Assembly: GCA_010093605.1 (NCBI GenBank)
Contig: MU004186.1
Coordinates: forward strand, 327,765 to 391,764
DNA length: 64,000 nucleotides
Direction of reading: 5' to 3'
Origin: Lophium mytilinum
Lineage: Eukaryota
Shown here piece by piece: positions 24,183 to 64,000 of this stretch. Below the pieces are notes generated by a model. It was given only the letters and a program-made list of their open reading frames with translations. It did no database searches and was not told the DNA's origin. The translations under genes and the position numbers were made by a program. Within the stretch, counting starts at the first letter, position 1; each line of letters starts with the position of its first letter.

Positions 24183-24629
24183 ATGGAACACGGTCCACAG
24201 AAGCCCGACAAGCACCTTCGTTTCTCTGATACTGCGCAGGTTTCCATCATTCCCCCAGAGCTAGACACTTTCGCAAATGACAGGCCAGCTCCCGAGCCGT
24301 CTAATAATGACTACATGCTTTCGGAGCGTATGTGGCGAAGCGCCACGGAAAGACAGCGTCGCGTGGATGAGCAGCGCATGCAATCCGGGTTGCAAGACGA
24401 GATGCTATCAGGTGCGCCCACATCCCCGAATTCGCAAGGCGAGGTAGGCAATAGTGATACAGAAATCGAGAAGTCCATGCAGGACGGCAAAGCTGTCGGT
24501 CGGAAGGCGGAGCGCAAAGTACTAAAGTGGCTTGACAAGAAGCTTGCTAGACGAAAAGGAGGCCAAAACGAATGGTTTGTCAGTGTCCCCAATCTGGTAT
24601 TACTAGATGTGCGGCGGAACGAACGATAG
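24183..24629 (+). CDS. Hypothetical protein (148 aa)
   Basis: ATG in good context (gccaATG); no recognisable domain. Confidence 0.5.
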   Translation: MEHGPQKPDKHLRFSDTAQVSIIPPELDTFANDRPAPEPSNNDYMLSERMWRSATERQRRVDEQRMQSGLQDEMLSGAPTSPNSQGEVGNSDTEIEKSMQDGKAVGRKAERKVLKWLDKKLARRKGGQNEWFVSVPNLVLLDVRRNER

Positions 24630-25296
24630 CTGACGCCACAGAAATCCCAATAAGAATTTCGTTCCCTTAGAATCGCGTTTCAGCTAGTTTTGCTGTATGC
24701 ACCGACTTAATACCAAATTCTCAAAACCGGCTTTATGTTTGATCCCGGTGGTTCAGCTTACGGCCCTCAAAATCATCCCTTTCGAAGCAATTGCCACCTC
24801 GCCAACTTGAAGTTATTACGGTACGAACATTTTGGGCACACAGAGCACTGATTATCCATACGGTATATCGGTACATGGGCACTGCCGAAAGGTATTCATC
24901 CAGGTTCAACCCTCCTTGAAGTACCTCTAAGGAGTGAGCAGAGCTGATTATACCACAGCCGGTCTACTAGGCCTGATCATTCCGTGGTTACGGCTAAGCC
25001 ACGCATCGAGGAACGTGATTAAATTTACTCCCCCGTGGGCCGTAAGTTTTACCTGTTCACAAAGGGTCAACACACTCGTAAGTGAGCAGCGTTGGCCATT
25101 GATTACGTGAATGCCACGAACGATCTCTTCTACCTTGCTAGTGATAGATAGAAGCGTAAGTATGAGAAGCCAGAGGTACGTAATTAGGCTTCTCGTGCCT
25201 TGTCACGTGTTTGCTAGCGGCAAAGCTAATTCTGCATTCGGCAGATTCATAAGGTATATATTTGAGTTTATTTTTCTCATCAACAAATCAACACAT

Positions 25297-25517
25297 GGGT
25301 GGTCCAGTCGGTCGGCTGGGCTATTCCATAGTCTAGGGGAGTCTTTATGATGTCCGCCCATACCGTGTACGCTGCGGTGATCGCATCTTGGGGCCTAGAC
25401 ATCCCATAATCTGGGGGAGTCTTAATGATGTCCGCCCATACCGTGTACGCTGCGGTGATCGCACCTTGGGGCTCAGATTATGGGATAGGTTCGAATCTCG
25501 GACAACTCTTTTTTTTT
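25297..25517 (+). ncRNA. Candidate RNA polymerase III ncRNA with two tandem structured modules
   Basis: A-box-like TGGTCCAGTCGG (25300-25311), B-box GGTTCGAATC (25488-25497), T9 terminator (25509-25517), TATATA near 25255. Two 78-nt-spaced units share an identical 39-nt core. Confidence 0.6.
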
Positions 25518-26041
25518 GATATATTTGCTTCCCTTTCTTTGTCTTGTTGTCCGATCCGACACCTCCATTGAACCCACTCACTTCGCGGCGATCTCTAGTG
25601 GTCTTACTTTTCAATCAATACATCACTATGCACCCTTCCTTCATGAGTGGGAAGATAACTAAGATTCATCTCTTTTAGTTCCATCTAGAGCGCTACGACG
25701 ACTACTACACTACCGCATCACCCTCACTACTCTTTGGGATCTGACTTCACTTGGAGCTCCTTAAGTGAGAAGCAGTAGAGAAGTATACGGCTATAACGAG
25801 CCATTAATCGGACGTCATAACATCGAGTCTGCTTGGCACGGTATAGAGATGTTCCGCCCAGGCATTCACCAAAAGAGTCGCGCCACTTTAGCCCGCCACG
25901 TGCGTCTCTTTACGTCACATGTAAACAGTCAAAAAGTTTTCACTTACCGCTTGACTCACCGCAAGGAATTCATTCCTCGCGGGTCTGCCTCACAGAGCTG
26001 CATCCTCCATCCACGATCCTCACCACAGCAATACAGCCTCG

Positions 26042-28350
26042 ATGTCCGAGATAGTGTCTCCCGAAGCCCTTCGCAGGCAGATTGAAGCCCATGAGGCGAG
26101 CCATAGCTCCCTCTTCCAGAGGCGACAGGCGGCGATGCACACCTTTGATGAGCTCAACGAGCAGCTCGCTGAGTCTGACCGAATTAGAAAAGTGAGTAAC
26201 TCATCGTCTAAGGACGCCTCCTGTGGCTCTAAGCTGACGTTGATCTCTAGGAGCTATATCGTCAGTTAAGAATCGCAAACCAACCTATCCCCGCAGTGCA
26301 CACTACAAATCTGCCCCCAGCGGCCAATCAACAACCTCACAGCAGCGCAGTACTAGCTGTAGGACTTGGGAACTCGGCCCTCACTGGGATCACCGCACAA
26401 GAACGTGAGCTTCTGGAGACTGCGAAGCGACTAGAGAAATACCCAACGGTAGTCCGATGCGACGATGGCACTTGGCGCGAGCTACTGTGCAACGTCTGCA
26501 AGGGAAATTTGAAAAAGAATGAAGCAACGGGTGAAAAGACCTTCATCCGCGGAACGGAAGGATTTCAAGATCATCTATCCTTCATTCACGATACAAAATC
26601 AACGCGAGAAGAAATTCTCGTCCAGTGTCTCCACCGAAAATGGAGCGTTAACGAAATTCTGTCCGTAGTCCGCGGAGATCGAACTGCCCGTCGAGTACCT
26701 CGAGTGCATGGCAGGGTCTTCGATCCCTGGAGCCTCCCTGTACGCGCGCCCAACCCCAAAGAGACCGCCCAACTGAGTGGAATGGACACCTTGGCAAGCT
26801 TCGGTCTCCCCATGATTGTCCAAACGGATAAGAATACCTGGAGTGACCTGAGATGCGGGTGGTGTCAAGGGAATGCTCGGAACGCGGAGCAGAGCTCATC
26901 ATCCGAGGATCTAGTCTTCCTCAGAGGGGTTGAAGAATTACAAGGCCACATTCGACAAATTCATTGGGTGGACCTGTCGGAAGAGGAGATCTACATCCAA
27001 TGTCTTCATAGACGCTGGACTACTGGTGAAGTTCTCTCGGTGCTTCGGAAAGATGCCTGGGGATATCCTGATGTGGAACTGATTGAATGCTCTATGCAAA
27101 AGGAGCCCAGCAATGCAGTCTTACAGGGGAGAAACCATGGCCCTTCACTCACCTCTACTAGCAGTCTTCCTCGAACTGGATCCCCTTCAGCTCCCATTGG
27201 CCCTTCAGCGCTCCAAGCATCGGACACTGCGACCGCACGGCAAGCCATCAGAACTTCCATTTTATTCCAGATGGCTCCTGGAGCTTGGGACGACGACACC
27301 TCAGCTCCTCCTCGCTCTGTTGGGTCTAATTCCGCTCCTCGATCCAGACATGGCCCGTCTCCCCTTCGCCGCGCGTTTAGCCCGAATCCTGGTCCAAAGT
27401 CCTCTCGAGCTTCACAGAACGTTTTCAGGGCCTCCAATTCTGCCAGTCTACCTCCAGTAGCTCAATCACAGGATTCGACCGACCCGTTTGCCGCTGCCAC
27501 CGCGACCTACTATCAGGCCAATAACACGATTTCTCGACCAGCTGTAAATCCAGGAGTTTCTCAAAATCATACGGCTACTACTAATAGTGATTCTAATCTT
27601 TCTGCGGAGGTTCAAGGCGTTGCTGGTCCATCTAATACCGTCTCTCTCACTAGCGCTGCTCCGCTCAGCCAAACTGGTAGCACAGTCCCTCCGCCAGACT
27701 CCATGATGCAGGAGATACTTGCAGGGTTGACCCGTATGGCTAGGTTGGCCGTCGCCCAACTTGATGCGAACCCACCTTCACTTGCCGAGTCTGCTGCTGC
27801 TTCTGCCGGAGTCCCAGAAACCACCGAAGTCATCCAACTTGATACACATTCACCTGCACTTGCCGATTCTGCCGATGCTGCCCCGACAACCCCGGCATCC
27901 TCGGGATCCAATGGCCCAGCGGCCTCGATTCCCCGTATCGAAATCCCCGATTGGCTAGGCTGTGTAGGCCAGTGGGCGAGTGGCCAATACGTGGAACTTG
28001 CGTGTCCCCGTTGCAACGCCAATACGAAACTCTCTAAGCACCCTGAATACTTCCACAGGTCGCATGGATTCGCCTACCACTTGCGGGAGCACCATGGGGA
28101 ATATCTTCCAGAAGAGTTCAAGGGAAGGAGGGCGGACTGGATTCTAGAGTATTGTGGGAAGAGAGTCATTGCAGTCGATGAACTCGAAGAGGTCATCGCG
28201 GCAGGCCTGGAGGGGGCTCGAAGTAAGAGGTCCCGCCCCAGTCGCATATGAAGGTCTTACTAACGTTTGTTAGTTCCCCACGTGAAGCCGCCGGCCAAAG
28301 AACAACCTGAGCCTTCAAGGGCTCGGAAGCGCCGCAGGAAGGCATATTAG
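26042..28350 (+). CDS. Protein with three atypical C2H2-like zinc-binding repeats, N-terminal coiled coil and C-terminal basic NLS-like tail
   Basis: Introns 26192-26250 and ~28222-28272 join in frame. Repeats: ELLCNVCKGN..HLSFIH, DLRCGWCQGN..HIRQIH, ELACPRCNAN..HLREHH. Ends RARKRRRKAY*. Confidence 0.75.
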
Positions 28351-31984: not shown

Positions 31985-32911
31985 TAGGAGATGTAGTTTA
32001 TCACATATTAGGTCGAGGTGAATGGGGTTGTGGTGAAGAAAGGTAGGTTGGTGAGGTGCAAAGCCGCTGATAAAATGTCAACAAAAGGCGACGACCTGGC
32101 CCGGTTTCACTACTGACTGCGATACCAGCGCCTGAGGCACCCTGATGAGTTTATCGAGCATTCACAATGACTACTGTGATTCTGGCATCGGAGATCAATG
32201 ACATATCGAATGGAGCATGGCGCGGCGGCAGAGGAGTATATGATTTGTACGTAGCATCTCGTCATACCGTGGTGAATTCCTGCGAGGGGTCATTTCAATG
32301 CATGCACACCCTCGGATTGCTGGTAGGCTTAGTCTTTGCTTAGAGTTCGGATCTCTTTGTGTCTTTCCCCGCTCATGGCTCGAGCACGGGATTTGGCAAC
32401 AATGGCCGGCGCTGCCCGAGGCAGCTCAATGAGGTTATCGACCAGACAAGAGGATTGTTGTAAGTCTCAAGCTAGATTTTCAGAAGGCGCCAAATGGCTC
32501 AGATGAGAGTGCATCAAGTTGTGTCCTGGTGTTGCACCGGCAAAGACGAAACGTGCCTTCGGAGTATGGCTCGAACCGCGCGAGACTCAAGCTTTACCAC
32601 GTAAATTTCAATGTTCGTCACTCAAGCAGATCACGCGTATAGAATCGGTAATGTTCATTCTCATAGTCGCTATCAAGGGAATCATAGAAGTAGAGTTGAT
32701 GTTAAAGTATTCATTGAAGTAGGTGGCAGCGCCGCTTGAAGCATTCTATCGAGTAAGTGATACAGTCTCGGGCTTTGGAAAACACTATCATGATAGATTG
32801 GGCACATGGCTACCACATGACGAGCGCAAGGAAGAGGGAGAAGCTTAAAGCTATCTCACCGTTACCAAGTTGGATATGAAAGAGCAGAATGATCACGCTA
32901 GAAAAGCAAAG

Positions 32912-46198: not shown

Positions 46199-48693
46199 GC
46201 CACTAGCATTTGATTGCTAATCCTCTGTGACCTTTTCTCCTGATCTGGGTCTACGAGGGCGTAGCTTTTTCGGACGCGCGAAGAGACGTAATTGCTCAGG
46301 TTACGTACCTTGGTCCCTAGGTCCTTTCCAAATGATGCTTTGCTCTTTGGAAAAACTGCCAGATGCAGAGCTTCGGCTCTCTCTAGCAGAAAACTGGTGT
46401 TTATAATATTCTTCTCGTCCACTCGTTGGATAACTTTTATATTTTGGTTTATTGTTTGTGTTTTGCTCTGCATATGCGCGCGGCGTTGGATGATATCCCC
46501 TCATTGCACTTTCAAGCATTTTCTTAGCGTTCCTTCAAAAGATTTACTTGATGACTATCCTTTTCATGAGCGTGTGTGTATCTCCTTTGGTATGTCTGTT
46601 CCCGAGGCCCTTTTCATCCCGTTCCTCTCCAGTACTCTCTATCATCCTTCATTTCCCTTCTCCATTCTCCATTCGTCCCCGCCTTCCCGTCGGCTTGCCC
46701 GGTTGGCCGCGACGTCGTGGAGTTCGGACCTTAGGATGCGATGTTGTCGATGTTAGAGCGGTGCTGTGCACGAGCCGGACATATTGGGTATGATCGTTCA
46801 TTCGCCTCTCACTTGTTCCCTTCTACCCCTTGCCCTTACGGTTGTATCTTCGGACCCGATTGTGGTGATCGTGGCGGAGGAGGAGCTGCCGACCTGACCC
46901 GTCTTGTGTTGTCTTGCTCGGCGGAACAGTGGGAGTTGCTGATCGATAACAAGCGTTATTCCTTCCTCCTCGTGTATTTTCTTTCTTTCCTCTCGGGACC
47001 ATGGCAGACAGGAAATTTGCGAGTTGAGCTGGAGGAGAGTGAGAATGTGTTGAGTCGGCTGGTTGAAGTATCCTCGTCCCCTGGATGAAGGGTTGGTTAT
47101 TGCGCTTTGCGACCTGTGGATCCTGCTGCTTTTAGCAGCGGGACAACGTTCAGAACATGAAGGTTTAGTGGTGGAATAAACTATGCGCGGCCAGCGCCTT
47201 ACAAACAGTCGCTCTTTTGAGAATCATGTCCTACGAGAGGTCGGGCTACCTCCGAAATTGCAATTGCTGGAGGCCGTAGACTAGACAAATTTAAAACCTC
47301 TCCTGGACAGACTATATACATTTCATTGTGATACTTGAGACGGACTTATTAATGCCTATGAGTAAGCATTAAAAGTGCAGGATATAATTGTTCACGTGAC
47401 TTAAACCCGAGCTCGGGCCGCCTCGTCCTCGTTACCGCATCGTGCATGTGAGCTACTCTCTCAAGCTTCAAGTGCCAACTTGACGTTCCCATCCGCGCTA
47501 ACAGGGGGCTAACGCTTGGGCCACCCCACTAAAATCAAACGTTAACACTACTATTACTAAAATTATAATAATACTCTTCTATATACTAGAAAGCTTTAAA
47601 TAATTATAATATATTACTAATAATCTTTAATACTATTTAAAAGTAATATATAATACTCTTATAAGGTAATTTCTATTATATAAGGCCTAAAATCTAGCTA
47701 GAAATTAATTAGTTTAGTGGCCTTATTTTAAATAAGCAGTTTCTTTTATTTCTTATAGTTGCATCTTAGTATTCTATCTCTTATTACTTTTATTAAGTTA
47801 TTTTTATTAATTTTTAATATAGAGGATTATATTAGACACCTTTTAGAGTATAGCTACATGCCCGTAGGCCTTCTTATTTAGAATAAGAAAAGAAAAATTA
47901 AGAAATTAAAAGTATAGGGGCCTTTATTTAAGATAAGCCTAAACTATAGTTAATTCTATAGAGGCTATTATCTAATTATTATCTAAAATAAGCCTAAACT
48001 ATACTAGAAACTACCTGCTAGCTATCTTTATACTAGATAAGGTAGCTAGATATTAGTAGGTAGCTAGATATTAGAAGTATTAATATTAGTGTTAGGCCTA
48101 TATTATATAATATCTAGCTAGATCTCTATAATGCGTAGATTATAATTAATTAGCTATTATATCTTATTAGCTTTATTAATAATAAGAAAGAAAAAGAAGA
48201 CTTATAGTATCTAGAGTTTAAGAGATACTAATTATACTATCTAGCAGTTTAAAGAACGCTAGATAAATATAGAAGAATATAACCTAAGATTATTAGAAAT
48301 AAAGTAAGAGGAAAGAAAGAAAAGAAGCCTTACTAGAAGCTTAGAGGTACTAGAAAGAGAGTTAGAAGGCTAGATATTCTTTATAATAAGGTACTCTTTA
48401 ACTATTACCTTCTACTAGGTGCACCTATAAGGTATAAGGTTCTCTATATTAAGGCTAATTAGAATAGTAGTTAAGTCTAGAGGCTAATTTATACTATAAG
48501 ATATACCTAGTATAGGCTTATATCTATAAAAATATTTCTAGTATTTAGAAATACTATTTATAGAGCGCTAGAGATAAGTATAGAGCTTCTTAATATCTAT
48601 AGTATTCTATAGCTTATTTATACAGTTCTAATAAGCTGTATACTAAGTAATAGCCCTAGAAGATTATTAGAAATAAAGCTAAAGAAGGGTAAA

Positions 48694-48741
48694 AAGGTAA
48701 GAAGGTAAGAAGGTAAGAAGGTAAGAAGGTAAGAAGGTAAA
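48694..48741. repeat. (AAGGTAAG)n short tandem repeat
   Basis: About six tandem 8-mers read directly. Confidence 0.85.
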
Positions 48742-49444
48742 GTAAAGAACTTACGCTCGCTACGCAGCTATAGTTGTAGGGTTAGCTAGAATATTAGCGC
48801 GCCGGGTGGCGACACGCTAGTAATAGGGGATAGCCTTAAAAGGTATTATTATTAATAAGCAGGGTAAGAAGTAGATAAGGTTAATAAAGCTTATAAAGCT
48901 ATAAAGAGATAGATTATTTTAAATAAGCTAAAAAGATACTTTAGTAAAGAGAAGGTTGTTCTAGATAAGCTAAAGAGATAGAAGAGTAATAATAGAAGAG
49001 TAATAATAGAAGAGTAATAAAAGCTAATAAAAAAGTTATTCTAGATAAGCCTAAAAGATAGAAGGTTAGAGAATAAAAAAGAAAAGCTTTAAGGTAGTAG
49101 AAGATAACTCTATATACCCTGCTAGTAATAAGATTATAGAGTATATTTCTCTATCTATCTCTAGCATTAGTATAAGCTTTAGTATAAAAATAGGCGGTAT
49201 AATACTAAAAGCTATTATATAGTAATACTATTCTAGAAGAGTATACTACCTAACGCGTTTATAAGGCTAATTCTTATTATAAATAAGCCTCTTAACTTTA
49301 AGAAATAGGCTTATAACTACTATAATTCCTAGAGAGTATACTTATATACTAGTACCTAAGAAGCTTATAAGGCTAATCTTTATTATAAATAAGTTTCTTA
49401 ACTTTAGAAATTAGGCTTATAACTTCTAGAGAGTATACTTCTTT

Positions 49445-49644
49445 TGTTAGGGCTTAAGGTTAGAACGTTGGAATTATTAGATTAAATAGTATTAATATTA
49501 ACAAAAGATAAATATAAGAGAGAAAGAGGTTCCTAGGACGGACGTTATAATAACCTAAAGGGCGGAGCAACGTTTACCTATTCTATAGAGCCTCTATTAC
49601 GTAACCTCTAGTTACGTGTTATGCGCAATTATATAGCTATAATA
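49445..49644 (-). repeat. 3' LTR
   Basis: Direct repeat of 57884-58083; begins TGTTAGGG. Confidence 0.93.
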
Positions 49645-52600
49645 TGTTTCCCCCCTCTAAAGAAGCCCCCTAATTAAAGCCTTCTTCTTGTAAGAGAGTC
49701 CTTTCTATACTAGAGTATCTATAATTACTTAAATATCTATTAAATAAAGTGCTAGGTTATACTATAGTTGTAATTTAAATAAAGAAAATAAATTAATTTA
49801 TAGAGAATTACTTATTCTTTCTATTTTTATGCAGCCTTCTATAGCCTTACTATTTAGTATAGTATTATATAGCTACTCTATTAGTCTGCTAGTATTGCTA
49901 TGTATAGTATTACTATACACTATATTACTATGCGCAGTATTGCTATACGCAGTATTACTATACGTAGTGTTACTATTTTATTATTTATCTAGACTAGAGC
50001 CGGCTATAACAGGGCTGTAAGGAGCCGTATAGCCTTTATAGCTGCTAGCCTACTGCTAGGTACTTATAATAATCTGCGCTATTACATTGCATTTAATTAT
50101 TACGCACGTCCGCGGTTAGGCCTCCTTAATAAATTAATTTAACCGCCGGTCCGGTAATTAAATTACGTAGCTTCCGCAGCGTTAGTTGTACGGAGGTCCA
50201 TTGCAGTAAGGATAGCAGCTAAGGTTAGTTCCTAGTCCGATAGTAGTTAGAATAATAAGTAAGGGCCTAGTTTCTTAGGGTATTAGTAGTAGAAATCTAT
50301 AATAAGGTGCGGGTAACTATTAGCGTAGTTGTAGTTATTCTATTAGGGCTTATTATTCTATCTAATAAACTTAATTTTATATTATAGCATGCCCCTTTTT
50401 CTAGTAGTAGAATTAAGACGTCTTCTATCTAGGCGGCTATTTATAACTTCTTTAGTATTACCTTTCTAGTATATAGGTATTATTTAAATAGAGGGAGGCT
50501 TAGGATTATATTATCCTTTTATAGAAATAGCGTTAGCTAGATAGAGGAGCTATAGGTAAAACACTAGATAGATATTCTCTATACCTTTTAGTAGGTTAAG
50601 CTTATATGCGCTTCTATTTTTATAGCTCTCTAGAATCTTAAAGGGGCCTAGCTTCTTAAAGTTAAGCTTCTTATTTAGTCGCGTTATTTTAATAAAGCGT
50701 CTATCTAGCATAACTTAATCGCCTGGATAATACATTTAAGCTAGTTATTATCCAGCGTTAGCATATTTCTTTTACTTAGCCTATGCCTATTTAATTTCCG
50801 TGCGGAGGAACGCGCGTAACTTGTCTAGCTTATTAATAAGTTTATCCGCTAGCTTAGTAAGTTAAATAGTTAGTGCAGTTACTTCCTATAGTAAACGCGC
50901 GGCTAGTATAGTGCCTACGCTAGGAATATAGCCTTTAGTAGCTATAAAGGGGGCCACTCTAGTAGAGGCGTTTCTTAATAAGTTAGCTTTAAATTTAGCT
51001 ATAGTAAGAAAGTTACACTAGTTATCTTACTAGTAGTTAATATATACTCTAAGGTACTATTTTAAGCCTATATTAGTAATCTCTATCTATCTATCTATTT
51101 TAGAGTAAAAGGTAGTAGAGAGCTTTAGCTTTATACTAATATACTTATATAGGCGAAACTAGAAGATTAAGATAAATTATATTCCTCTATTAGAAATAAT
51201 AGACTATAGATACCCTTTAGTACGCTATACCTATTTAAGGAAGGCTTATACTACTTCCTTAGCGTCTATTATAACTATTAGAATAAACTTGCGCATTTTA
51301 GAGAGTCTATTAATAATAACTATAATATATTAGTAATCTTATCTAAAGCGTAAGCACATTAGTAGAGGGCTAATAAAATTAACTATAAGATTAGTTTAGT
51401 ATTACTTAGGAATAGAAAGTAGTTTAAGAAAGCCTTGCTTTATATTGCGTGCATGCTTAATGCAATTATATAGCTGGCAGGCCTTAATATAATAGTTAAC
51501 GTTATTAGTTATCTATAGCTAGAAGTAATATATTAAAACCCGGTTATATATAGATGTAGTTCTACTATAGCTAACCGGGGGAGGTTTATATAAACCTTTA
51601 ATAATAGCTAATTAGAGTTCCTCTTTAGTAGAAATATATAGGCGGTCCTTCTAAATAAAAATAAGGCTGTTATAAATTATGCAGTTATAAAGCTTAAGCT
51701 TAACACTGTAATTTTTAACTATATTAGTAGGTAGGCGGCGTAGCTTAGCTTTAATGGCGTCTTTAATGGCGTTGCCGACGGCGTTATTAATAAGGGCTTC
51801 TTATATGCAATCTACTATATCTTACTCTACGGCACTATTAGCAGGGTTACTCTATAACTCCCCCTGCCTTAGTAACTTCTATAGTTCTTTATTAAGGTTA
51901 CTTTAAGACTCCCTCTAATTAAGTTCTACTTTGCTAAGGTTATATAATATTGCTAAGAGGGAAACTATATTATAGGTAACGCCGTTAGTTATAATATAAG
52001 CTAGTTTAATAGTGTAACGCATTTCTAGTTCTAGGTTATAGTCCTTTAAGATTGTTTATTATTAGATTTTATAGCGTTTATTATCTTAATCTAGTATATT
52101 ACCTAGGCGTCTAGTTAGTAGATTAGCCTTACTATTATCCTTGCCTAGTCGGTAAGTAATTTAGAAGTTAAATTTAGAAAGAAACTCGGCCCATCTAGCC
52201 TATTATTAGTTAAGCTGCTTAGTTTCTATAAAGTATTACAGGGTGCAGTAATTTAAAAGAACTTTAATTAGATTACTATATCTATAGCTAGCAAGTTCTA
52301 TACACTATTCCTTAAAGGCGCAGATAATTACTAGGAGTTCTTTATTATAAATCTAATAGTTAAGTTAGGCTGCGCTTATTTAATAGGACATAAACGCGAT
52401 AGGGCGGAGGACGCTATTAGCCTGCATTTAAGATAGTATAGTAGCTGTAACAGTATTAAATGCATTATATTCTACCTATATCTCTAGATCTAGATTAAAA
52501 TAAGCTATCTAAGAAGCGTTAATAAACGCTTATTTTATTTATTTAAATAAAAAGTCTTTTAAGCTGCCTTTCTACTATAGAAAGGTAAACTACTTATAGA

Positions 52601-55600
52601 CCTTAGCCCTAGTAAGTCTTATAAGGGGTCCTATAATATTAGAATAGGCGATAATAAATTACTAGTAGAAGTTATAGAAGCCTAGAAAAGCTTGCACGTT
52701 ATAGAGGTTCTATAGTTATAGCTAGTTAACTATAGTTTTAACTTTAGCTAGGTCTATCTTAAGGCCGTTAACGCTAATAATAACGCCTAGATACTTAACT
52801 TTCTGCTTATAGAATTTACACTTTATAATATTAAGAAAGAGACTAGCCTTATAGAGTTGCTAGAGGACTTTCTTAATATAGCCTACGTGTTCCTCTAATA
52901 TCTTACTAAAAATAAGAATATTGTTAAGATAAGCTATATAGAAATTATCTAGGTATTTTAAGAGGATGTTATTAATAAAGGCTTAAAATGTCGCTGGGGC
53001 ATTGCATAAGCTAAAGGGTAGAACGGTGAATTTAAATAGGCCGTATCTAGTAAGAAAGGCCGTGTATTTCTTATCTCCTTCGCGCATTCTAATTGCGTTA
53101 AAGGCAGCGATAACATTAAATTTAGTATAGTAGCGAGCGTATTTTAGTAATGCTAAAGTATCCTTTATAGCCGGTAGAATGTTATAGGCCTTAATAGTAA
53201 TAGTATTAAGGCTATAGTAGTTAATGTAAATTTAGAGGCCTCCCCTAGGTTTATAAATAATAATAACTAGAGCGGTATACTAGCTATTACTTTTCCTAAT
53301 ATAGCCTTTGCCGTACATCTTATTAATAAATATTTTAATAACTAGTATCTCGTCCTGTAAGAGTCTATAGACTTTACGCGCTAGTGCCTTTATTTCTAGT
53401 TTAATATTAATATAGTAGTTAATGTCTATGCCGTCTTTTACTTTATAATGCAGTAGTAGCTTATTAGCTTTCTTTAGGTTCTATATATTAAGGAAGCCGT
53501 AATATTCTATAGATACTAATACTTTAAGTTTATTACAGGTTATTAGTTTACGCTCTATCTTCTTAAAGAATTTCTATTAGTCGTCTTTTAACATTACGTA
53601 GAGACTAATAGCCGCCAGGTTATTAGTAAAATTAGCTAGACCTAATATAATGTCGCTAGATTTATACAGGCGTCTATTAGCGCGCGCTTAAGCTTTAGCT
53701 TTCTTATTAGTAAGTGCTAGCTTAAAGTGTTTAGGCTATATATAGATAGTGTCTTCCTCTAGTAAATACTAGGAGTTGTATAAATATTTATTACTAGATA
53801 CTACGTTAATATTAAGTACTTTAAAAGCAGCGAGCTAAGCATTAAGCTTCTACTAGAATAGGCGCTTACCTATATAGGCGATAGGGTCTTTAGACTATAT
53901 ATAGACTAGTTTATAATTAACTAGGTATTAAGAATAGTAGTAGTCTAAGTCTAGCTATATTATTTAGGTACTAAACTTTATATAAGCGTTGTGTATTATA
54001 AGCTAACCTATACTAAAAATAATATTATAGCTCTTAAGGTTATAGATTAGTGCCTAAAATTTATTATAATGGCTTCTAATCTATATAGTAACCTTAGCTG
54101 CTTTATTAATAACGGACGTAGATCTATTTAGTAGCTTAATATTACATAGAGTAGCTTTATAGACGCTAAGCTTATAATATTTTATAAAGTCTATAGAAAT
54201 AAATATAAATCCGCCGCATCTAGAGTCTATAAGAATAGTTAATTTAACTAATCCAGTTAAAGTAATAATTCTATAGTTAAAATCCATCTATTTACTAGAT
54301 AGGGGGGTAAGCCTAATAGCGCATGCGGAGAGCTTAATATTAGAAGGTCTTAGAGGGGGTAACTTAAGCTCTTAGATACATGCAAGGGCTTAAGTTAGCG
54401 TGTCTTCTAACTATCTCTAACGACGACTTTCGTTAGAGATTAGGCATTTCCCGAGTTGTTAGAATAGGTAGCCTTATTATTATTATTGTCTTAGCCTTAG
54501 TTATTCTTATACTTATACTTATATTAATACTCCTAATTACTACTATAATTAAAAGCATTAAGTTCTATACTATTAATACTAGTAGTAGTAAGGCGCTTAT
54601 CGCGCTAAGCCTTTAATATAGTCTTCCTAGCTATAGCATATTTAGGGTTACTAGCGCGGTAGTTCTTCTTAAAGTAGCTAAAGTAACGTCCTTCCTTACT
54701 AAGGCGTAGGCGGATATGCGGTGGGACGCTTAGTAGTAGGATAGTAGTAGTCTTCTTAACTATAATACAGTTATTAGTCTTAGTAGTAGATACTTTATAC
54801 TAGGCGCGGTTAGAGTTATAATAGATATTCTACGCGTATATATTATTTAAGCGGCGCGCTAAGATTTATATAGCTAGAAGCTCTTTATTAGCCCGCTTTT
54901 CGCGTTAAATATAATAATAGTCCTTATATAGAATATTATCTTTTACCTAGTACTAGGTTAATAGACTAAAGTTAATATATTTAGTAAGATCTATTTATAG
55001 TATTTCCTTAAGGTAATAGTATTAAGTCGCGAGGCCGTTATTAATTTTACTATACTTAAGCCTGTTAAGAACAACGTTAAGGCATTATAGAAAGTTAGAC
55101 GTTTTTTTATTATATTACTATTTTATGCCCTTGCTATTAAGCTAGTTAAGAAGGCGATCGCGATAAACAGCGTTACTTTCCTAGAATATAGTATCTAGGT
55201 CTTAGACAAGTTTCTTAAGTAATTAATATAGATTAGTAGATGTAAGAAGTCTATAGTCTTCTATAACCTTATATACGCGCCCCTTATAGTAGCTAATAGC
55301 GAGCTAAATTTAGGTTATAGTTATAGGGTAAGTCTATTAGTCTACTTAGACTAAGTAGATTAGGTAGTTCTTCTACGCTGCGTATACTATAGCTTCTAAT
55401 TTAAAATTCTATAGATATATATACTTAGGGCGAGGGCCTTATTATTATCTATATTAAGGATAGATAGGTCTATATACCTATAGCTAAGTAAAACCGCCTA
55501 GTTAGCTTAGGTTTAGGTTATCTCCACCTCTACCTCTACCTCCTGCAGTAGTAAAGTATTAGCCTGGAACATAATTATATTAGAAGTTATCTGGGTTAAT

Positions 55601-57883
55601 AGTATATAGTCCCACTAGTAGCAGTAGAAAGGCGTTATTAGTAGAGTTATAATTAGTAGTATATTTATCTATATATAGATTATTAGGTTATCCCGTTAAT
55701 ATATTCTACTAAACTTAAGCTTTAAGCTAGATAATCTATATTAAGGCCTATTAATATCTAGTTTAGAGCTTATTAAGTTAATAGATTTAGGCTTAGAAGT
55801 TAGCGTGTTTCTTATTATATAGGTAATGTACGCGGGCTAACTCTATTTATTTAGACTTAAGCTTATAGTTAAGGGTGTAGACTTGCGTCTAGAGCTTATT
55901 AAGTTTACTATTAGTAAGTAAATACTTTTTATTTAGTTCCTTAATAGTAGTATTAGCGGCGTCTTATTTCTATACCGCGATATTTATTTTATACTTATAG
56001 TTATTACTATCTTAGTAAGCTAGTATAATATAGTTCTACTACTATTCTAGTATAAGTTAGACGTCTTTAGTAAGGTTCTATAGAACTTATAGTTTATATT
56101 ACTAGTAAATGCCGTCTCTATAGCGCATCTTAAAGATAAAGCTATTTATACGCTGCGCAATTGCAAGATGTAACTACTAATAATCCTCCGCGCGTATTAT
56201 AGTATAGTACCTATTACTCTATTCTATGCCCGCTACTTACTAGGCTAGGTTAGAAGTATTAAGTCTAGTAATAGATTTAACGCGGGTGGATTAGTATTAT
56301 AATAGAGATATATTAGGTAAGAAAATGCCGTAAATAGATAGTATTCTTAGATACTTAGAATCGCGGAACTAATATAGCTTAGGAATAGTATTATAGTATA
56401 CTATAGCTTCTAGAGTATTAATAGTAACGCCTTAATAGGCTGTTTTAAGCTTATTAACTTTATCGTCCGCGTTATTACTAAACTAACGTTCCTTCTTCTA
56501 TTAGTTGTGTTTATTGGCGGAATTAAAGTTAAAGGAGGAGTCCTTATTATAGGCGGCAGTTGTGTTATTAAGGCCGGTAGTTATATTATTAAGGATAGGT
56601 AAATTAAAGTTGCCTAGTACGTAGCTACTAATGCAGGAGAGTAGAAGTATAGTTTCCTCTACTATAGTTACTGCCGGAGGAGCTAGGGTAATTAGTAGAG
56701 GTTTACCTATAGTACTAAACTTAGTCTAATAATATTATAAGTCTACAGGTGTTACTAGAGGAACTAGTCTAATAAATAGAGTTAGTTAAGAAGTAGTAGC
56801 TAGTATCTACAACTAGAATTAAGTCGCGCCTTAGAAGGGTTAGTTTGCTAGCTAAATAAGAGAAGGCTATAGCCTGTAATTAATCTATATTATATTATTA
56901 TTATTATCTCCTATAAGTAGGTAGTATAAGTTTAGAGCGCCTTCCTATTATAATATAATGCGGCGGGGGTTAATAGAAATACTATTAGCGTTGCTAAATA
57001 GGCGTCTAGTAGTAGAGCGTCTACTAGAGATAGAGTTACTAAACTATAGGGCTTTAGCGCGGTTAAAGGTATAATAGTTGGGGTTAGCTATATAATAGGT
57101 GGGAGAAAAGTTAGTATAAAAGAAAGAAAACTTAAAGGGCGAGGTATTAAATTTATATGCAAGTACCTATTAAATTTAGATTATTTACTACGCGCTCTTA
57201 GACGCGTAGAAGGTTTAAGAGAGTAGTACTAGTAGCACTAGTTATATATAGCTATAGAACTGCCTAGAGGGTTATAGTAAATAATAAGTCTACTATTTAT
57301 AAGGCGCGGGTAGTATATAGAAAATAGGTAGTCTATAGAAAATAGATAGTCTGCAGGAAATAGTTATTCTATAATACTAGGCATGCGCTTAGCTTACTAT
57401 TATTAATACTAAGCTTTCCAGGCGTTAGTCTTTATACTGCAATAGCAATTAATTAGTAACGCTAGGCGCGCGCACGCGCTATTATCTATACTAAGCTTTC
57501 CGGGTATTAGTCTCTATATAATAATAGTAATAGGTAGAAGAAGAAGTTATAGAGCCGTTAAAGTAATAGATAAGAATTAGTAAGGACTTTCTAGAGTGCT
57601 GCTACTACCCCTCTATTATAGGGGCTTATTATAAGCGCTGCTATAGTTATAAGGTCTATTATCTAGCTTTACGCATAATAGCTAGATCGCTTTATTAGGG
57701 GCCTGCGGCGCTACTAATAGAAGTACTACGTTGGTGTAGTCTTTATTAGGGGTCCGTAATACTGCTAACGGTTACTATCTAGATATAGGTATACTATAGC
57801 TTATTATAAGAGCGCACTCTATTACGGAAAATTTCTAGGGGTTGCTTCCATTACTCCCGGAAGCTAGAAGGGTATTTATCTTA

Positions 57884-58083
57884 TATTAGGGCTTAAGGTT
57901 AGAACGTTAGAATTATTAGATTAAATAGTATTAATATTAATAAAAGATAAATACAAGAGAGAAAGAGGTTCCTAGGACAGATGTTATAATAACCTAAAGG
58001 GCGGAGCAACGTTTACCCGTTCCGCAGAGCCTCTATTACGTAACCTCTAGTTACATATTATGCGCAATTATATAGCTATAATA
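57884..58083 (-). repeat. 5' LTR
   Basis: Direct repeat of 49445-49644; differences are mainly C/T and G/A transitions. Confidence 0.93.
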
Positions 58084-58220
58084 CCTTTACTAGTATATAC
58101 TAAATATATATAGTATATATTAATAGCGCGCCGTCTAAATAGTAGTATTAGTATAAGGCCCTTATTCTTCTCTATATAGTGCTAGTACTAGTACTATATA
58201 GAGAAGAAGAATAAGATAGA

Positions 58221-58745
58221 TAGTATTTATTATAAATAAGTATAACTATATAGAGAATAATAAGTAAGTATAAAGTTTAGATTTATTCCCCCTATAAAGT
58301 ATAAGTAGCATTTATTATAAATAAGTATAACTATATAGAGGATAATAAGTAAGTATAAGGTTTAGATCTATCCCCTCTATAAAGTATAAGTAGTATTTAT
58401 TATAAATAAGTATAACTATATAAAGAATAATAAGTAAATATAAGATTTAGATCTATCCCCTCTATAAAGCATAGGCAGTATTTATTATAAATAAGTATAG
58501 CACTATAAAGGATAAGTAAGTATAAGGTTTAAATCTATCCCCCCTATAAAGTATATATAGTATACATTTAAAATAAGTATAGTACTATAGAGAATAAGTA
58601 AGTATAAAGTTTAAATCTATTCCCTCTATAAAGTATATATAGTATGTGTTTAAAATAAGTATAGCACTATAGAGGATAAGTAAGTATAAGGTTTAAATCT
58701 TTCTTTCTCTCTTAAGTATAGAGAGCATGCATTTAAAATAAGGCG
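58221..58745. repeat. 82-85 bp minisatellite, ~6 copies
   Basis: Unit starts near 58221, 58306, 58391, 58476, 58558 and 58640 (..tagtatttattataaataagtata..ataagtaagtataaggttta..). Confidence 0.88.
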
Positions 58746-59612
58746 CCTAAGAAAGTTAATATAGTAGCATTTATTAATAATAAGCCTTATAACTGCGGTA
58801 CTCTATAAAGAAAGAGAATAAACTGCCCCCGCTAGTATAGTAGCAGTATTTATTAATAATAAGCCTTATAACTATAGTATTTACGCAGAATATTAAGAGA
58901 CTACAGGAGATTATATTAAGAACGCTGGGGACGTTAAGAGACTACAGGAGATTATATTAAGAACGCTAGGAACTATAGAAGATTATATTAAGAATATTAA
59001 GAATACTAGAGAACTACTAGAAAGCATACTAGATTAGTAAGATTAGTAAGGTATAAGATTATATTAGGAATACTTAGAAACTATAGAAGATTACTTAGAA
59101 ACTATATAAGATTGCTAGGGAACTATAGAAGATTACTAGGGGACTATTAGAAAGTATAGTAAGATTAGTAATATAATATAGTATATTAAGAATACTTAGA
59201 AAGTATAGTAAGATTAGTAATATAATATAGTATATAAGAGTATATTAAGAATGCTATAGAGGTACTATGCCTTTATTCTTAATATAGTTATAGTTCTATA
59301 CCTTTACTTCTAGTATAGTTGTAGTTATATACCTTTATTTCTAATGCAGCTATAATTCTAGGCGTTTTCTTCTTATAAATCTATACCTTCTCTTCTTTTA
59401 TAGTTTTATATCTTTATTTTAAATAATTCTATAGCTCTTTACTTATTTCTAATACTTCTAGAGTTCTTTACCTTCTCTCTAAGTTAATATAGTCTTATAC
59501 CCTATACTATTATACTAGCGCTAATACTTAAGCCTTAAATATCTACCGGCGCTAATACTAAAGCCTTACGCCTATTTCTATATATTTATTTAAAATAAAG
59601 TAGACTGTAAAA

Positions 59613-59705
59613 TAGAAAGGCTATATAGAGAGGCTATATAGAAAGGCTATATAGAAAGGCTATATAGAGAGGCTATATAGAAAGGCTATATAGAGAGGCT
59701 ATATT
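59613..59705. repeat. 13-bp tandem repeat (AGARAGGCTATAT)n
   Basis: About seven copies read directly. Confidence 0.85.
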
Positions 59706-62700
59706 TTAGCTATATAGTACCTTTATCTCTAATAAGTATAGCTTATACTTATTAGAGATAAAGGTATAAAGCTATATATAGTTACACGTTCTATTATAAC
59801 TATAGTATACTTATTTATAATAAAAGTTTAGGTTTATAAAGTTCTACTACTTATAAGTTGGCCTATTATTCTAACTAATAAGATACTTTATAATTATTAT
59901 AGATAAGAAGTTCTCTAACTAGCTACCCTAATTATAGATCTTTTATATATTCTAGCGCCGCTTACTAGATAGCTACTAGCAGCCACCTCGGCGAAAGAAA
60001 TAGCTAGAGAAAGTAATTAGATTATAGCTAATATCTATAAGATTGTTTTAAAAGTTAAGAATAAATTAAAAAGAGAACTATTATTATTAATAAAGATGCA
60101 GGCGCGTTTATAATAAAGGAGAACCTATAATTAACTTATCTTTATTAATAATAGGTTAGTTATATAGGTTAAACTTCTAGAATAGGCGGCTAGAGTAAAT
60201 ACCTAATAGATAAAGCTATTTAAGTAGTAGATTAGGTATAGAAATCTATAGGTTCTTCTATTATATATAGATAATAAATAGCTTTACCTCTATTTATTTA
60301 TGCGTTAATAATAAGTAGGTAGGGGAATTTATTAGAAATAAGGGGGTAGTATACCTCTATACTAATAAGTTTTCTAGAAAGAAAAAGTAATCTTAATAGA
60401 TCTAGAATTCTTATTAAAAACGCGTATATTACTTATCTTAATTTAAAGAACCTCTTTAAGTTATAAAAGGTAGGTAAATATAATAGTATAGGCTAGATGC
60501 ATTATTATTCTCTATCTATAGCCCGCCTAGAGTGCTCTTCTATCTTTATTCTTTAGATAAGAGAAAGAAGAGGTATCTTCTTTCTCTAGTTATTTAAAAT
60601 AAGCCTTAGTATCTTTATATATCTTTTAAAAATCTTACTCTTAGATAGCTTAAGCGCTTTCTAGTACCTCTCTAGCTATAACCTAGGCTATTATTAGTAA
60701 TAAATAAAGCTAATAGATAGTAGTAGTATATCTTCTCTCTCTAGAGCTACTTTATTGCGTAGTAAATAGTATAGAATACTAATAGATTTCTAGTATATAT
60801 ACTATTAGTCTACCTTATCTAAAAGTTAGATTCTTATTAATAATAATATAAATAGTGCTAGCTAATTATAGCCCTTATCTTCTAGGTATAGAAGTATAAA
60901 GTGCTAGAATTCTGCATATTCTTATTTTTATCTCTAACGCTAGAGGTAATAAATATAGTAGTAGACGCTTATCTAGAATAAGGCTTTACTTTCTTCTTTC
61001 TTTCTTACCTTATACCTGCTTTCTATTCTAAGTCCTCTCTTATTACTTTTCTTATTTTAACTATCCCTTAAATCTATTATATAAAATAGTTTAGCGCCTA
61101 TTTACCCGGGGTATTAATATATTTATAGGCCTGTAGCTTATAGAACTTTAGCTATTTTAGAAACTTAGCCTACTACCTAGTACTTATTAGAAATAAATAA
61201 GATATATCTTTATCTAGAATATACTCTTAATACGCTTTTATAGTACCTTATATAAGGCTCCCTTTAGTTATATAAAGCTAGTACTCTTTATTCTTCTCTA
61301 TAAGCTTTCTACTCTATAGCTTATTAATTAACTTTAAGAAATTAGGATTTAAATAGCTAAGGACCACTAACTTAGTATTCTAGCGGATAATCTTAGTTAT
61401 AATCTCCCCTTTATTACTAACGCCCTTTTTTTTATTAGTATTATTAAGCATCTCTTTCTAAGTTACTTACTTTACTATAGACTTAGGTATAGCCGCTAGA
61501 AGCTTCTTAAGCTACTCTAGCTTATCTTTATCTATAATAACTACTTTCTTCCCCCTCTTAGGCTTTATTTTTAATACGCTCTTTAGGGTTTATAGTAGTA
61601 AGAACTTAGCCTTAGCTATTTTAGCTTTTTATAGAGGTATAGAGAATAATAAGTATAGATTTATTATTAATAAGTAGATAGAAGGGCAGATTTTAATATA
61701 GGTATACGCTAGGCTTATTTATATTTAGTAATAGCTGTTATTTAAAATAGAATAAGTTATCTAAATTAGAATAAGCTACCTTATTATTAATAAAGACCCC
61801 TCTTTATATACTTTTTTGCACCCTTTATTATCTATAAACTCCTAGTATTAGCCTATCTACTAGCCTACCTATCTATATACTACCTATCTATATACTATCT
61901 ATTCTTTTATTCTTTAACTTATTTAAAATAAATTAGTATACCCCTAAAAGTAAGTACTATTTTAAAGGCTTCTCTTTAAGAGCGTCTAGCTAAAGAATAG
62001 CTAAAGTAGTAGGCTAATTAGCCCCCCTAAAATAATACTTTTCTAGATAATAACTTCCGGCTAATAGCTAAGATAAATAGGCTAGAAGTATAGATTAAAA
62101 GCTATATCTTCTATAACTTTAAGACTTTAATTTAAATTTAAGAAGAAAGTAAGGTAGTAGTAAGAGTAGTATATTTAAGACTATATAAGTAGTTTACTAT
62201 ATCTTAAGAATATACTCTACTACCTATATAGAAACCTTCTTTATCTATAATAAACCTGCTAGTATATTTATCTATAATAAACCCCCTACTACTAGTACCT
62301 AGCTACGCCCTTTCTATTTCTTTTACCGGGCAGCCTCTACTAATATAATTATCTACAACGCATCTATAGTAGCCTTAGTTATTACTAATAAATCTATAGT
62401 AGAAACTAATACTCTAAGAAAGTAATTAATTCTAGGTACCGCAGGCTATATTTAGGTAGTAAGGCTAGTTATATATAATGCAGGTACTCTTACGCCTAGA
62501 GGATTCTTTTAGCCCTTATTCTAGCCCCGGTAAGTAAAGCTAAATTATATTAACGCTAGAGAACTATCCTCTAGCTAGTAGTAGAATTACTACCTTATTT
62601 ATATACTATTATATCTATAACCTCCCTAAGTAGTACCGGCTATAACCTTCTTTTATATCTCTAACTTATTAATAATAAGTTAAAAGCCCCCCCTCTTCTA

Positions 62701-64000
62701 CTAACTACTAGTACTAGAACTAGCCGTCTCTAATAAAGCGTCCTAAGATAAAAGAAAAGAAGAAGGCTACGCCGGAGGAGGAGGAGAAAAAGATAACTAT
62801 TACTATACCGCACGGAATAGTAACCTTTATTAGTAGTAATATCTCTATACTACCTATTATCTTAATTAATAGTACTTTAGGTATTATAAAGATTAAAGGC
62901 GGATAGAAAGTACCTTAAGAAGTAGAAGTGTTTCTAATAATTAAGGAAGTTTCTATTCTACTTAAGTATTAGATTAATATATAGAAGTATAAAGAAAATC
63001 TAATATAGATAAAACTTAAGTAGAAGTATAGTAATTAGAAAGTAAGTATTCTTATTCTTATTAGAAATAAATACCCCCTCTCCTTAATAAATACCCCCTC
63101 TCCTTATTAGAGATAAAGGCTTATTTTTTATAGGTTTTTATAGATAAAAGAAGAGAGTTTAATAATAACCTTCTATTCTAGAAGTAGTATTCTACTATAC
63201 TAAAGAAGAAGAAGAAGCCTAAACTATTAAAATAGTCCCCTCTTTTTAACGCTATTAAGCTCTAGTAAAAGAAGGTTAATAAAAAAAATATAGAGAGAGT
63301 AAGAGCCTATTAGAGTAATAGTTTTAATAAGAAGTATCTCTATAGGTATAGCTTAAACTAGAGAATTAAATAAACCCCTTAAGTAATTATAGCTAAATTT
63401 AGGCGTAATATAGGTAGAGCCTTACCTTAAGATATTAAGAAGAAGAGGCAGAACGTTATTAAGAATAATAATAAGAATAATAATACTTAGATATTATTAT
63501 AAATAAATATAACTCTATTTAAATCTATATATATCTATATAGCTATAATATCTACTAAGTAACTTATTATAGATAAACTATATAGCCGTGCAGTATAATT
63601 ATATAGTATACTTATATAGTATACTTATATAGTATTACTATATAGTGTAGTATTTAGCTATAAGGTCTACTAAGCTACTTATTACTAATAAAGACTACTA
63701 GGCTCTTTATAGAATACTAATAAGGGCTAAGAAGTACTAAGGTATATTCTAGAAATATTTTAAATATTTAATCTTATATAGTAGAATATTAAGATCTCCT
63801 TTAATAGCGCGTTTAAGACGCACTAGATAAGATTTTAGTAGACTTTTTATATAAATAGAATTTTCTATTCTAATATAGATCTTAATATTCTAATACCTAG
63901 TTTAAGTATATACTAGATACCTAGCGTTTAGAATAAGTTAATATAGCGTTATAAAGCGGTAGAAAAGGGGGTAGATAGGCTATAGAAGGGAGAGAGTATA

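Follow-up and report, generated by a model that had tools for sequence, protein, structure and literature searches.

A candidate tRNA-derived, Pol III-type small RNA gene with a duplicated three-way-junction insert, lying within an intron of Lophium mytilinum

Vault RNA, adenovirus VA RNA and EBER are structured RNAs that RNA polymerase III (Pol III) makes from type-2 genes, and have paired ends and a variable centre. Inserts in tRNA-like genes are familiar from intron-containing tRNA genes and transcribed tRNA relics such as yeast ZOD1, and an engineered tRNA scaffold carries structured RNA. In filamentous fungi, to our knowledge, few Pol III non-coding RNAs have been described beyond tRNA, 5S, U6, signal recognition particle (SRP) RNA, the RNase P and MRP RNAs, and some precursors of microRNA-like RNAs (milRNAs). 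Among the last is milR-4 of Neurospora, a tRNA-linked Pol III precursor of small RNAs according to PMC3547838, which also cites the tRNA–miRNA transcripts of murine gammaherpesvirus 68 (MHV68); expression of aptamers from tRNA introns as tricRNA is treated in PMC6614914. Here we analyse an element of about 220 nucleotides (nt) in a 64,000-nt stretch of Lophium mytilinum DNA (contig MU004186.1; the whole stretch is ‘the window’, and its first letter is position 1). Sequences resembling the A and B boxes of tRNA genes here bracket two tandem copies of a 78-nt unit, and a run of nine T residues (T9) follows. The reading that we prefer, tentatively and with confidence a little short of an even balance, is that of a small RNA gene of Pol III type, descended from a tRNA gene and carrying a duplicated three-way-junction insert that is under selection. 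We infer tRNA ancestry, the ends of the RNA and any function, and we infer Pol III transcription from motifs only.

Judged by analogy, the nearest parallels to the way the locus would work are the structured type-2 Pol III RNAs, together with the tRNA-linked Pol III precursors. With vault, VA and EBER RNAs it shares an A box near the 5′ end, a B box near the 3′ end, a predicted oligo-U end, a structured centre and possible pairing of the ends (GGGTGGT/ACAACTC, 6/7), but it has no sequence or Rfam likeness to them and its centre is a tandem repeat; major vault protein is, as far as we know, generally absent from fungi. As in intron-containing tRNA genes and tRNA relics, the boxes stand in tRNA order, a T-run is present, the insert lies near the place of the anticodon arm and copy number is low. 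Unlike them, the locus has no cloverleaf or credible anticodon, its boxes are 188 nt apart, and its insert of ~150 nt is structured, duplicated and apparently constrained. It recalls intron-hosted small nucleolar RNAs (snoRNAs) in lying in sense in a short intron, within a transcript that has no obvious coding role there, and in having a paralogue elsewhere; it departs from them in that its C box is only approximate (AUGAUGU), D and H/ACA boxes are missing, and Rfam gives no match. The likeness to milR-4 consists of tRNA-type promoter elements, extra hairpins and a filamentous ascomycete as the organism. The milR-4 and MHV68 hairpins, according to PMC3547838, come after intact tRNAs or lie between them, and RNase Z and Dicer set them free, whereas the modules here lie between the boxes of a broken tRNA-like body and are three-way junctions with stems of 7–15 bp, unlike the hairpins of miRNAs. 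An earlier reading of this DNA from its letters alone (the sequence-only reading) had stated that some Neurospora milRNA precursors are Pol III transcripts, which is right by the same paper. Finally, in the tRNA scaffold and in tricRNAs, as here, a tRNA-like carrier has a structured RNA in the place of its anticodon arm or intron; those carriers are intact tRNAs that processing enzymes recognise, whereas the carrier here is degenerate.

The 78-nt unit is duplicated head to tail on the + strand (Table 1). Repeat detection returned two copies of 77 nt (25323–25399 and 25401–25477) at 91% identity and a spacing of 78. Within the units lies a 39-nt core without a single mismatch between the copies (25347–25385 and 25425–25463), and none of 100 shuffles gave such a match; the identical core of the sequence-only reading is confirmed. 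In unit A the closing stem GTCTAGG/CCTAGAC is paired at 7/7 positions. The closing stem of unit B, ATCCCATAATCTG/CAGATTATGGGAT (25401–25413/25474–25486), is a 13-nt perfect inverted repeat that extends to 25486 and has 15 pairs in the minimum free energy (MFE) fold. Each unit is predicted to fold into a three-way junction, in which the closing stem is joined by one short hairpin (GGAGUC...GAU-G-UCC) and by another that is longer and irregular. For the + strand the MFE is −89.2 kcal/mol, with z = −3.05 against shuffles; the − strand, at z = −1.02, does not stand out from them. An alternative outer helix of 14 bp, formed by 25321–25334 with 25475–25488, encloses both units, with the end pairing GGGTGGT/ACAACTC as a possible addition, and folds constrained to it reach −83.4 to −84.4 kcal/mol, within 5–6 kcal/mol of the MFE. 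The sequence-only reading had already noticed that the arm at 25321 can pair in this way; the pairing is real, although its 3′ arm is 25479–25488 and does not start at 25480 as had been given. We also observed that the 5′ end of the body, AUGGGUGG (25293–25302), is pairable with CCGCCCAU of each core (25353–25360 and 25431–25438) through eight pairs, one of them GU, and likewise with UCCAU/CCCAU stretches, so that several pairings that exclude one another would be in competition for one AUGGG motif.

Eight positions distinguish the two units (3, 9, 13, 24, 64, 73, 74 and 78), and seven of the differences are transitions. None of the eight falls in the core and five fall in the 7-bp closing stem inside the unit; the remaining three are divided between a loop, an internal loop and an outer stem. 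In register, the pairs of the closing stem in units A and B read GC/AT, TA/TA, CG/CG, TA/TA, AT/GC, GC/GT and GC/GC. Two pairs are therefore compensated (G-C to A-U and A-U to G-C), one has gone from G-C to G-U, and none of the seven is broken, which agrees with the earlier statement that the closing stems differ compensatorily. The inner helices are invariant between the units and are uninformative in either direction. We then simulated the process by placing eight random substitutions (seven transitions and one transversion) 2,000,000 times. At least two compensated pairs arose in 1,023 of the 2,000,000 trials and an unchanged core in 5,167 (0.26%), while the combination of at least two compensated pairs, an unchanged core and no broken pair arose in 30. 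The pattern is thus unlike that of random mutation, and suggests that the stems and the 39-nt core of an RNA matter.

Matches to the A- and B-box consensus patterns are given in Table 1. The 233 nt between 25276 and 25508 lack any run of at least four T, whereas the other 192 nt of the intron that contains the element hold four such runs. The arrangement is that of a Pol III type-2 gene, with an A box, a B box and a downstream run of at least five T on one strand and no internal terminator, at an unusually long spacing. The order of A box, B box and T9 given in the sequence-only reading is correct, and the occurrence of all three in this order on one strand, within 220 nt and around the repeat, appears not to be chance; three T8 sites occur in the window. 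That reading had also placed a TATA element at 25255: its letters are present, but they fall on GTATAT, which is the 5′ splice site of an intron that is seen spliced out in a contig described below. TATTTTT (25269–25275) may be an upstream Pol III promoter element. Several further candidates were rejected. A ‘tRNA-Leu(UAG) with 139-nt intron’ was called by ARAGORN at -ps80, but this call carries no weight, as 106 of 197 random 401-nt pieces taken from the window also receive a tRNA call at that setting; an ‘mtRNA-Gly’ at 25295–25364, called in metazoan-mitochondrial mode with -ps, is absent without -ps; and a second B-box-like site at 32568–32577 on the − strand has nothing tRNA-like around it.

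Table 1. Positions in the window of the candidate element, its parts and the host intron–exon structure
Feature	Position	Strand	Remark
5′ hairpin with A-box-like site	25295–25329	+	15 pairs, 1 bulge, −19.6 kcal/mol
A-box-like TGGTCCAGTCGG	25300–25311	+	loose consensus pattern match
Unit A	25323–25400	+	closing stem 25331–25337/25394–25400, core 25347–25385
Unit B	25401–25478	+	core 25425–25463, closing stem continuing to 25486
B-box-like GGTTCGAATC	25488–25497	+	B-box core match; flanking ‘T-stem’ 3/5 pairs
T9 run, candidate Pol III terminator	25509–25517	+	
TATTTTT, T/A-rich site ~22–28 nt before the body	25269–25275	+	start of paralogue likeness
Host intron 1	25176–25244	+	69 nt, GTACGT...CAG; deduced from spliced contig of run X3
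9-nt micro-exon ATTCATAAG	25245–25253	+	preceded by CAG and followed by GTATAT; ATTCATA plus the AG placed at 25677–25678
Host intron 2	25254–25678	+	425 nt, GTATAT...TTTTAG; contains the whole element; removed in a contig

We aligned the contigs of four public sequencing runs to 25100–25700. Runs X1 and X2 are DNA runs of organism A, the probable origin of this DNA, run X3 is from organism B and another study, and run X4 is a leaf-surface metagenome from a third study; none of the four is recorded as an RNA run. The duplication is common to three sources, organism A, organism B and the relative in X4, and for this reason we take it not to be an assembly artefact. A paralogue, known in part, is present in X1 (record 2, a 23.6-kb contig), X2 and X3. 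Over 25269–25355 seven of its letters differ and an extra C is inserted. The next 81 nt are missing, with CTCT in their stead, which leaves a single unit; over 25437–25486 eight letters differ, after which it continues with GCATCTTGGGTTCGAACCTTGG / GCATCTTGGGTTCGAACCTTGGTTGACCTT. Its core reads ...GTCC-CTCT-CATACC..., compared with ...GTCC-GCC-CATACC... at this locus. This change shifts the frame, and on that ground we rejected a coding reading of the core, which opens with ATGATG and reads MMSAHTVYAAVIA.

At 8–16% divergence the paralogue keeps the A-box region and the B box, GGTTCGAACC; it has ~8 nt (GCATCTTG) before the B box that this locus is without. Its likeness to the element begins at the TATTTTT site, 28 nt before the body, and the preceding letters are unlike. 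The region of the 5′ hairpin is changed in the paralogue by 25312 T>C, 25320 G>T, 25322 T>C and a C added after 25325: of these, one falls in the loop, another makes a GC pair of a GU pair, the added C can put a GC pair where there was a GU pair, and the last produces a new mismatch. A 10-nt sequence of the 3′ part of unit A, GCATCTTGGG (25383–25392), reappears in the paralogue directly before its B box, which hints that part of the module may derive from internal duplication of a tRNA-like 3′ region.

In the metagenome relative, a 151-nt contig of X4 over 25373–25517 has a single difference (25486 T>C), while an X4 contig over 25595–25700 has five differences and a 4-nt deletion (~5% divergence). 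The comparison of element with neighbouring intron (Fisher p = 0.084 for substitutions, 0.021 with the deletion counted) gives only a hint that the element may change more slowly than the surrounding intron, because both contigs have a depth of 2. The element therefore has homologues, a paralogue in the same genome and a near-identical copy in the leaf-surface metagenome, where the sequence-only reading would have given it up had there been neither transcript nor homologues.

Copies appear to be few. Within the window neither blastn (word size 7) nor the unit covariance model with filters off found any copy other than the two units. In the DNA runs X1 and X2 the depth of the core contig was 211–232 against 127–175 for the flanks, or about one to two times, and a single paralogue contig was seen. 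A 63-nt paralogue-type contig in X2 had a depth of 334 against ~130–160, and may represent a second paralogue-type copy, that is, a third locus. We conclude that the family comprises two to a few loci and is not a short interspersed nuclear element (SINE), which disposes of the earlier suggestion of a tRNA-derived SINE. Nor is the architecture that of a SINE, in which neighbouring A and B boxes would form a 5′ head, the tail would be LINE-like or A-rich and target-site duplications would flank the whole: here 188 nt separate the boxes, the element ends with T9 in sense, a search for direct repeats at the flanks gave none, and the stretch resembling the paralogue takes in 28 nt upstream of the body. 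Many dispersed copies were not seen. A metagenome scan with a 24-nt piece of the core gave no matches, a blank that says little in a collection that is mostly non-fungal. Two metagenome matches, L001 and L002, to a 20-nt pattern common to the units and the paralogue were discarded as chance; neither is flanked by sequence resembling the element, and with the unit covariance model they reach 14.9 and 16.5 bits, compared with 107–110 for true units.

Rfam gave no match at gathering scores over the whole window, and cmscan of 25100–25700 at E up to 10 returned only a stray mir-276 match outside the element, in agreement with the sequence-only reading, which did not recognise it as tRNA, 5S, U6, SRP, a canonical snoRNA or a hammerhead. 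As to box C/D RNAs, there is no CUGA in 25290–25510 and the C-box-like AUGAUGU lies 11 nt inside a stem. As to box H/ACA RNAs, the unit hairpins abut without a hinge, there is no ANANNA at their junction, and the nearest ACA (25502–25504) is 15 nt past the last stem. No model of the self-cleaving ribozymes (hammerhead, twister, pistol, hatchet, HDV-like and hairpin) matched with cmscan at E up to 10, and the hammerhead core is absent, with AUGAUGU instead of CUGAUGA and no GAAA. The riboswitch aptamer models in Rfam, for TPP and others, did not match either. The element is not a member of the tRNAs, SINEs, C/D or H/ACA RNAs, known ribozymes or known riboswitches, a defining feature of each having been looked for and not found. 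Precursors of milRNAs are expected to have a hairpin of ~20 bp or more that yields discrete RNAs of 19–25 nt, and the longest stems here are of 13–15 bp. The roles suggested in the sequence-only reading, as a small-RNA precursor, guide, decoy or ribozyme, gained no evidence, and stems of 7–15 bp are short for Dicer. Literature text contained no printed match to the 18–19-nt core or hairpin pieces, as DNA or as RNA, and the portions of the literature on fungal tRNA-like Pol III RNAs and on ascomycete tRNA SINEs that were covered held nothing pertinent.

How might such a locus work? We propose that a tRNA-derived gene would have lost its tRNA coding and kept its A box/B box promoter and T-run terminator. 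Its body would consist of the 5′ hairpin with the A box, the two 78-nt three-way-junction modules, the B box and T9, and TFIIIC and Pol III would most likely make an RNA of ~220 nt, from ~25290 to the T-run. The boxes kept in a paralogue that is 8–16% diverged, the conserved T/A-rich start at about −25, and the T-run-free body followed by T9 all point to Pol III. The stems of this RNA would be maintained by selection, and, in what we take to be the most economical mechanism, each module would present the invariant 39-nt core as a surface to which a protein or another RNA binds, twice at this locus and once in the paralogue. The intron that hosts the gene would belong to a weakly expressed Pol II transcript.

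The host transcript was seen in a 160-nt contig of X3 (depth 3), which joins 25175 to 25677 with ATTCATA between them and reads exon ...CCAGAG, the 9-nt micro-exon and exon TTCCATC.... Both host introns are removed in this contig, and run X3 therefore holds cDNA. A 108-nt contig of X3 is identical to 25356–25463, across the junction of units A and B; its source could be pre-mRNA, excised intron, a separate transcript or DNA. The depths in X3, 16.5 over the element centre and 3 over the spliced contig, do not serve to gauge level. X3 lacks cover at 25184–25267 and 25499–25666, which is to be read only jointly with the contig that bridges both, and it has no zero-difference contigs for 25269–25355 and 25464–25512 of this locus. 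Assemblers normally clip short dead-end branches, and for that reason these gaps are not readable as RNA ends. Around the micro-exon we noted no long + strand open reading frame (ORF) between 24629 and 25955; the host transcript could be the long spliced leader of a downstream gene, or non-coding. Inverted repeats were also noted at the flanks, 25281–25291 with 25539–25549 (82%) and 25498–25506 with 25546–25554 (100%). They join intron immediately ahead of the element, and the last 9 nt of the element itself, to intron past the T9 run, and could close the element as a domain in the unspliced host RNA.

Several findings weigh against a tRNA-derived Pol III gene under selection. Taken singly, the motifs occur in the window at the rate expected by chance (six A boxes against 4.39 expected, and two B boxes against 1.14). 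The A-to-B distance of 188 nt is far beyond that of tRNA genes; TFIIIC tolerates long spacing but works less well. ARAGORN found no genes in the window at default, nor with introns allowed at default, -ps85 or -ps90, and the T-stem ATAGG/CTCGG has only three of its five pairs (G-C, G-U and U-G), in keeping with the broken T-stem and the missing cloverleaf of the sequence-only reading. Because no tRNA finder supports a cloverleaf, the presumed tRNA ancestry stands on the two boxes. The substitution pattern is good but not conclusive evidence for selection on RNA structure, since the covariation is drawn from two sequences, the program's shuffle control is without power at two rows (124/500), and template switching inside hairpins can yield compensated changes without selection; the step taken in the sequence-only reading, from compensatory stems to selection, holds to that extent. 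The element lies in sense inside a Pol II GT-AG intron, so that the X3 RNA may come from pre-mRNA or excised intron. The RNA status of X3 comes from a program's guess and one spliced contig of depth 3, and contigs reveal neither the ends, the strand nor the level of an RNA. Two metagenome scans, in a collection that is mostly non-fungal, gave no homologue from another fungus. Lastly, the X3 contigs that carry the paralogue, of 409 and 499 nt, reach more than 300 nt beyond it on either side, and this copy seems to belong to a longer RNA, or to DNA present in X3.

The sense position within an intron that is seen removed in a contig is also what would be expected if a stable RNA were cut from the host Pol II intron, in the way of intronic snoRNAs or other stable intronic RNAs, with a likeness to A and B boxes that is accidental or a relic and a T9 that merely belongs to an intron rich in T. 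We regard this as a live but unlikely rival. In its favour, X3 contains the element's centre and its spliced contig bridges what remains of the intron, the inverted repeats at the flanks could close off the element, and the X3 paralogue also lies within longer contigs. Against it, there is no D box, H box or well-placed ACA, and no Rfam snoRNA family at E up to 10. The paralogue keeps both the boxes and 28 nt of upstream flank, which would be needless for a mature intron-derived RNA, and the boxes, together with a T-run-free body that passes immediately into T9, are left unexplained.

Decay offers another, and in our judgement doubtful, account, in which the locus is a dead tRNA relic with an insert and a neutral 78-nt duplication, any RNA is a functionless by-product, and the compensation arose by template switching or luck. 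The broken cloverleaf, with its three of five T-stem pairs and no ARAGORN gene, fits a relic, as do the restriction to two or three loci and the seven transitions among the eight unit differences; in addition, the ~8 nt missing before the B box relative to the paralogue are the would-be 5′ strand of the T-stem. A neutral duplication, however, would be expected to leave the core unchanged in only 0.26% of cases, whereas all eight differences avoid it and no pair is broken. The duplication is moreover common to organisms A and B and to a metagenome relative whose neighbouring intron has diverged by ~5%, and the boxes are retained in the diverged paralogue.

We think it very improbable that the units act in cis on splicing, as tandem aptamers in a leader intron that would control use of the micro-exon or intron retention in the manner of fungal TPP riboswitches. 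In favour of this, the intron directly follows a 9-nt micro-exon, there is no long + strand ORF over 24629–25955, and the intron lies upstream of a 666-amino-acid ORF; the element also has two three-way junctions with an invariant core, and alternative folds within 5–6 kcal/mol. Yet no riboswitch family matches, the paralogue has GCC replaced by CTCT inside the supposedly invariant core, and the A box, B box and T9 are left unexplained.

Excision of the modules by tRNA-splicing endonuclease, or by self-cleavage at one and the same site of each unit, to give a free and perhaps circular RNA is hardly credible. The insert does lie at the would-be anticodon-arm position, and the 108-nt contig of X3 has the length of a closed 78-nt cycle (78 + 30, the latter being k − 1 with k = 31), but a contig of this length also results when a tandem repeat has its short flanks clipped, and we accordingly do not count it as pointing to a circle of 78 nt. 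The predicted folds contain no bulge-helix-bulge, no known ribozyme family matches and the hammerhead core is absent, the mature-domain fold from which the eukaryotic endonuclease measures is broken, and contigs reveal neither ends nor circles.

The surroundings of the element place it in a filamentous fungus and say nothing further, the neighbours in the window with Pfam matches being Fungal_trans and DIOX_N/2OG-FeII_Oxy. The 666-amino-acid ORF downstream (26251–28251, +) is likely to have its first exon within 25955–26269 and has no Pfam match. By eye it contains three similar segments in which a CxxC pair is followed by histidines (LLCNVCKGN...HLSFIH, LRCGWCQGN...HIRQIH and LACPRCNAN...HLREHH), and these may constitute an undescribed zinc-binding repeat. 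Over the last 16 kb of the window (48000–64000) GC content drops from ~50% to 27–34%, and this AT-rich block is of the type left by repeat-induced point mutation in filamentous ascomycetes.

If the locus were a decaying relic, it would be of small interest. A more far-reaching idea, which we put forward as speculation and rate as quite unlikely, is that the element belongs to a natural ‘tRNA-scaffold’ RNA family in filamentous fungi, in which a tRNA-derived carrier transcribed by Pol III has its anticodon arm replaced by one or two copies of a conserved three-way-junction module. These would serve as a trans-acting binding or guide element, or would be released, perhaps as circles, by tRNA-processing enzymes, and an intronic gene of this kind would couple Pol III with Pol II. 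If the boxes are kept, the insert is structured, constrained and duplicable, and Rfam contains no match, even a small family of such tRNA-derived genes would amount to a new class of fungal RNA. If the reading of a tRNA-derived gene with a selected insert is true, the locus would be a worked example of a tRNA gene exapted to another role, and its sense position in a Pol II intron would make it a compact case for interplay between Pol II and Pol III.

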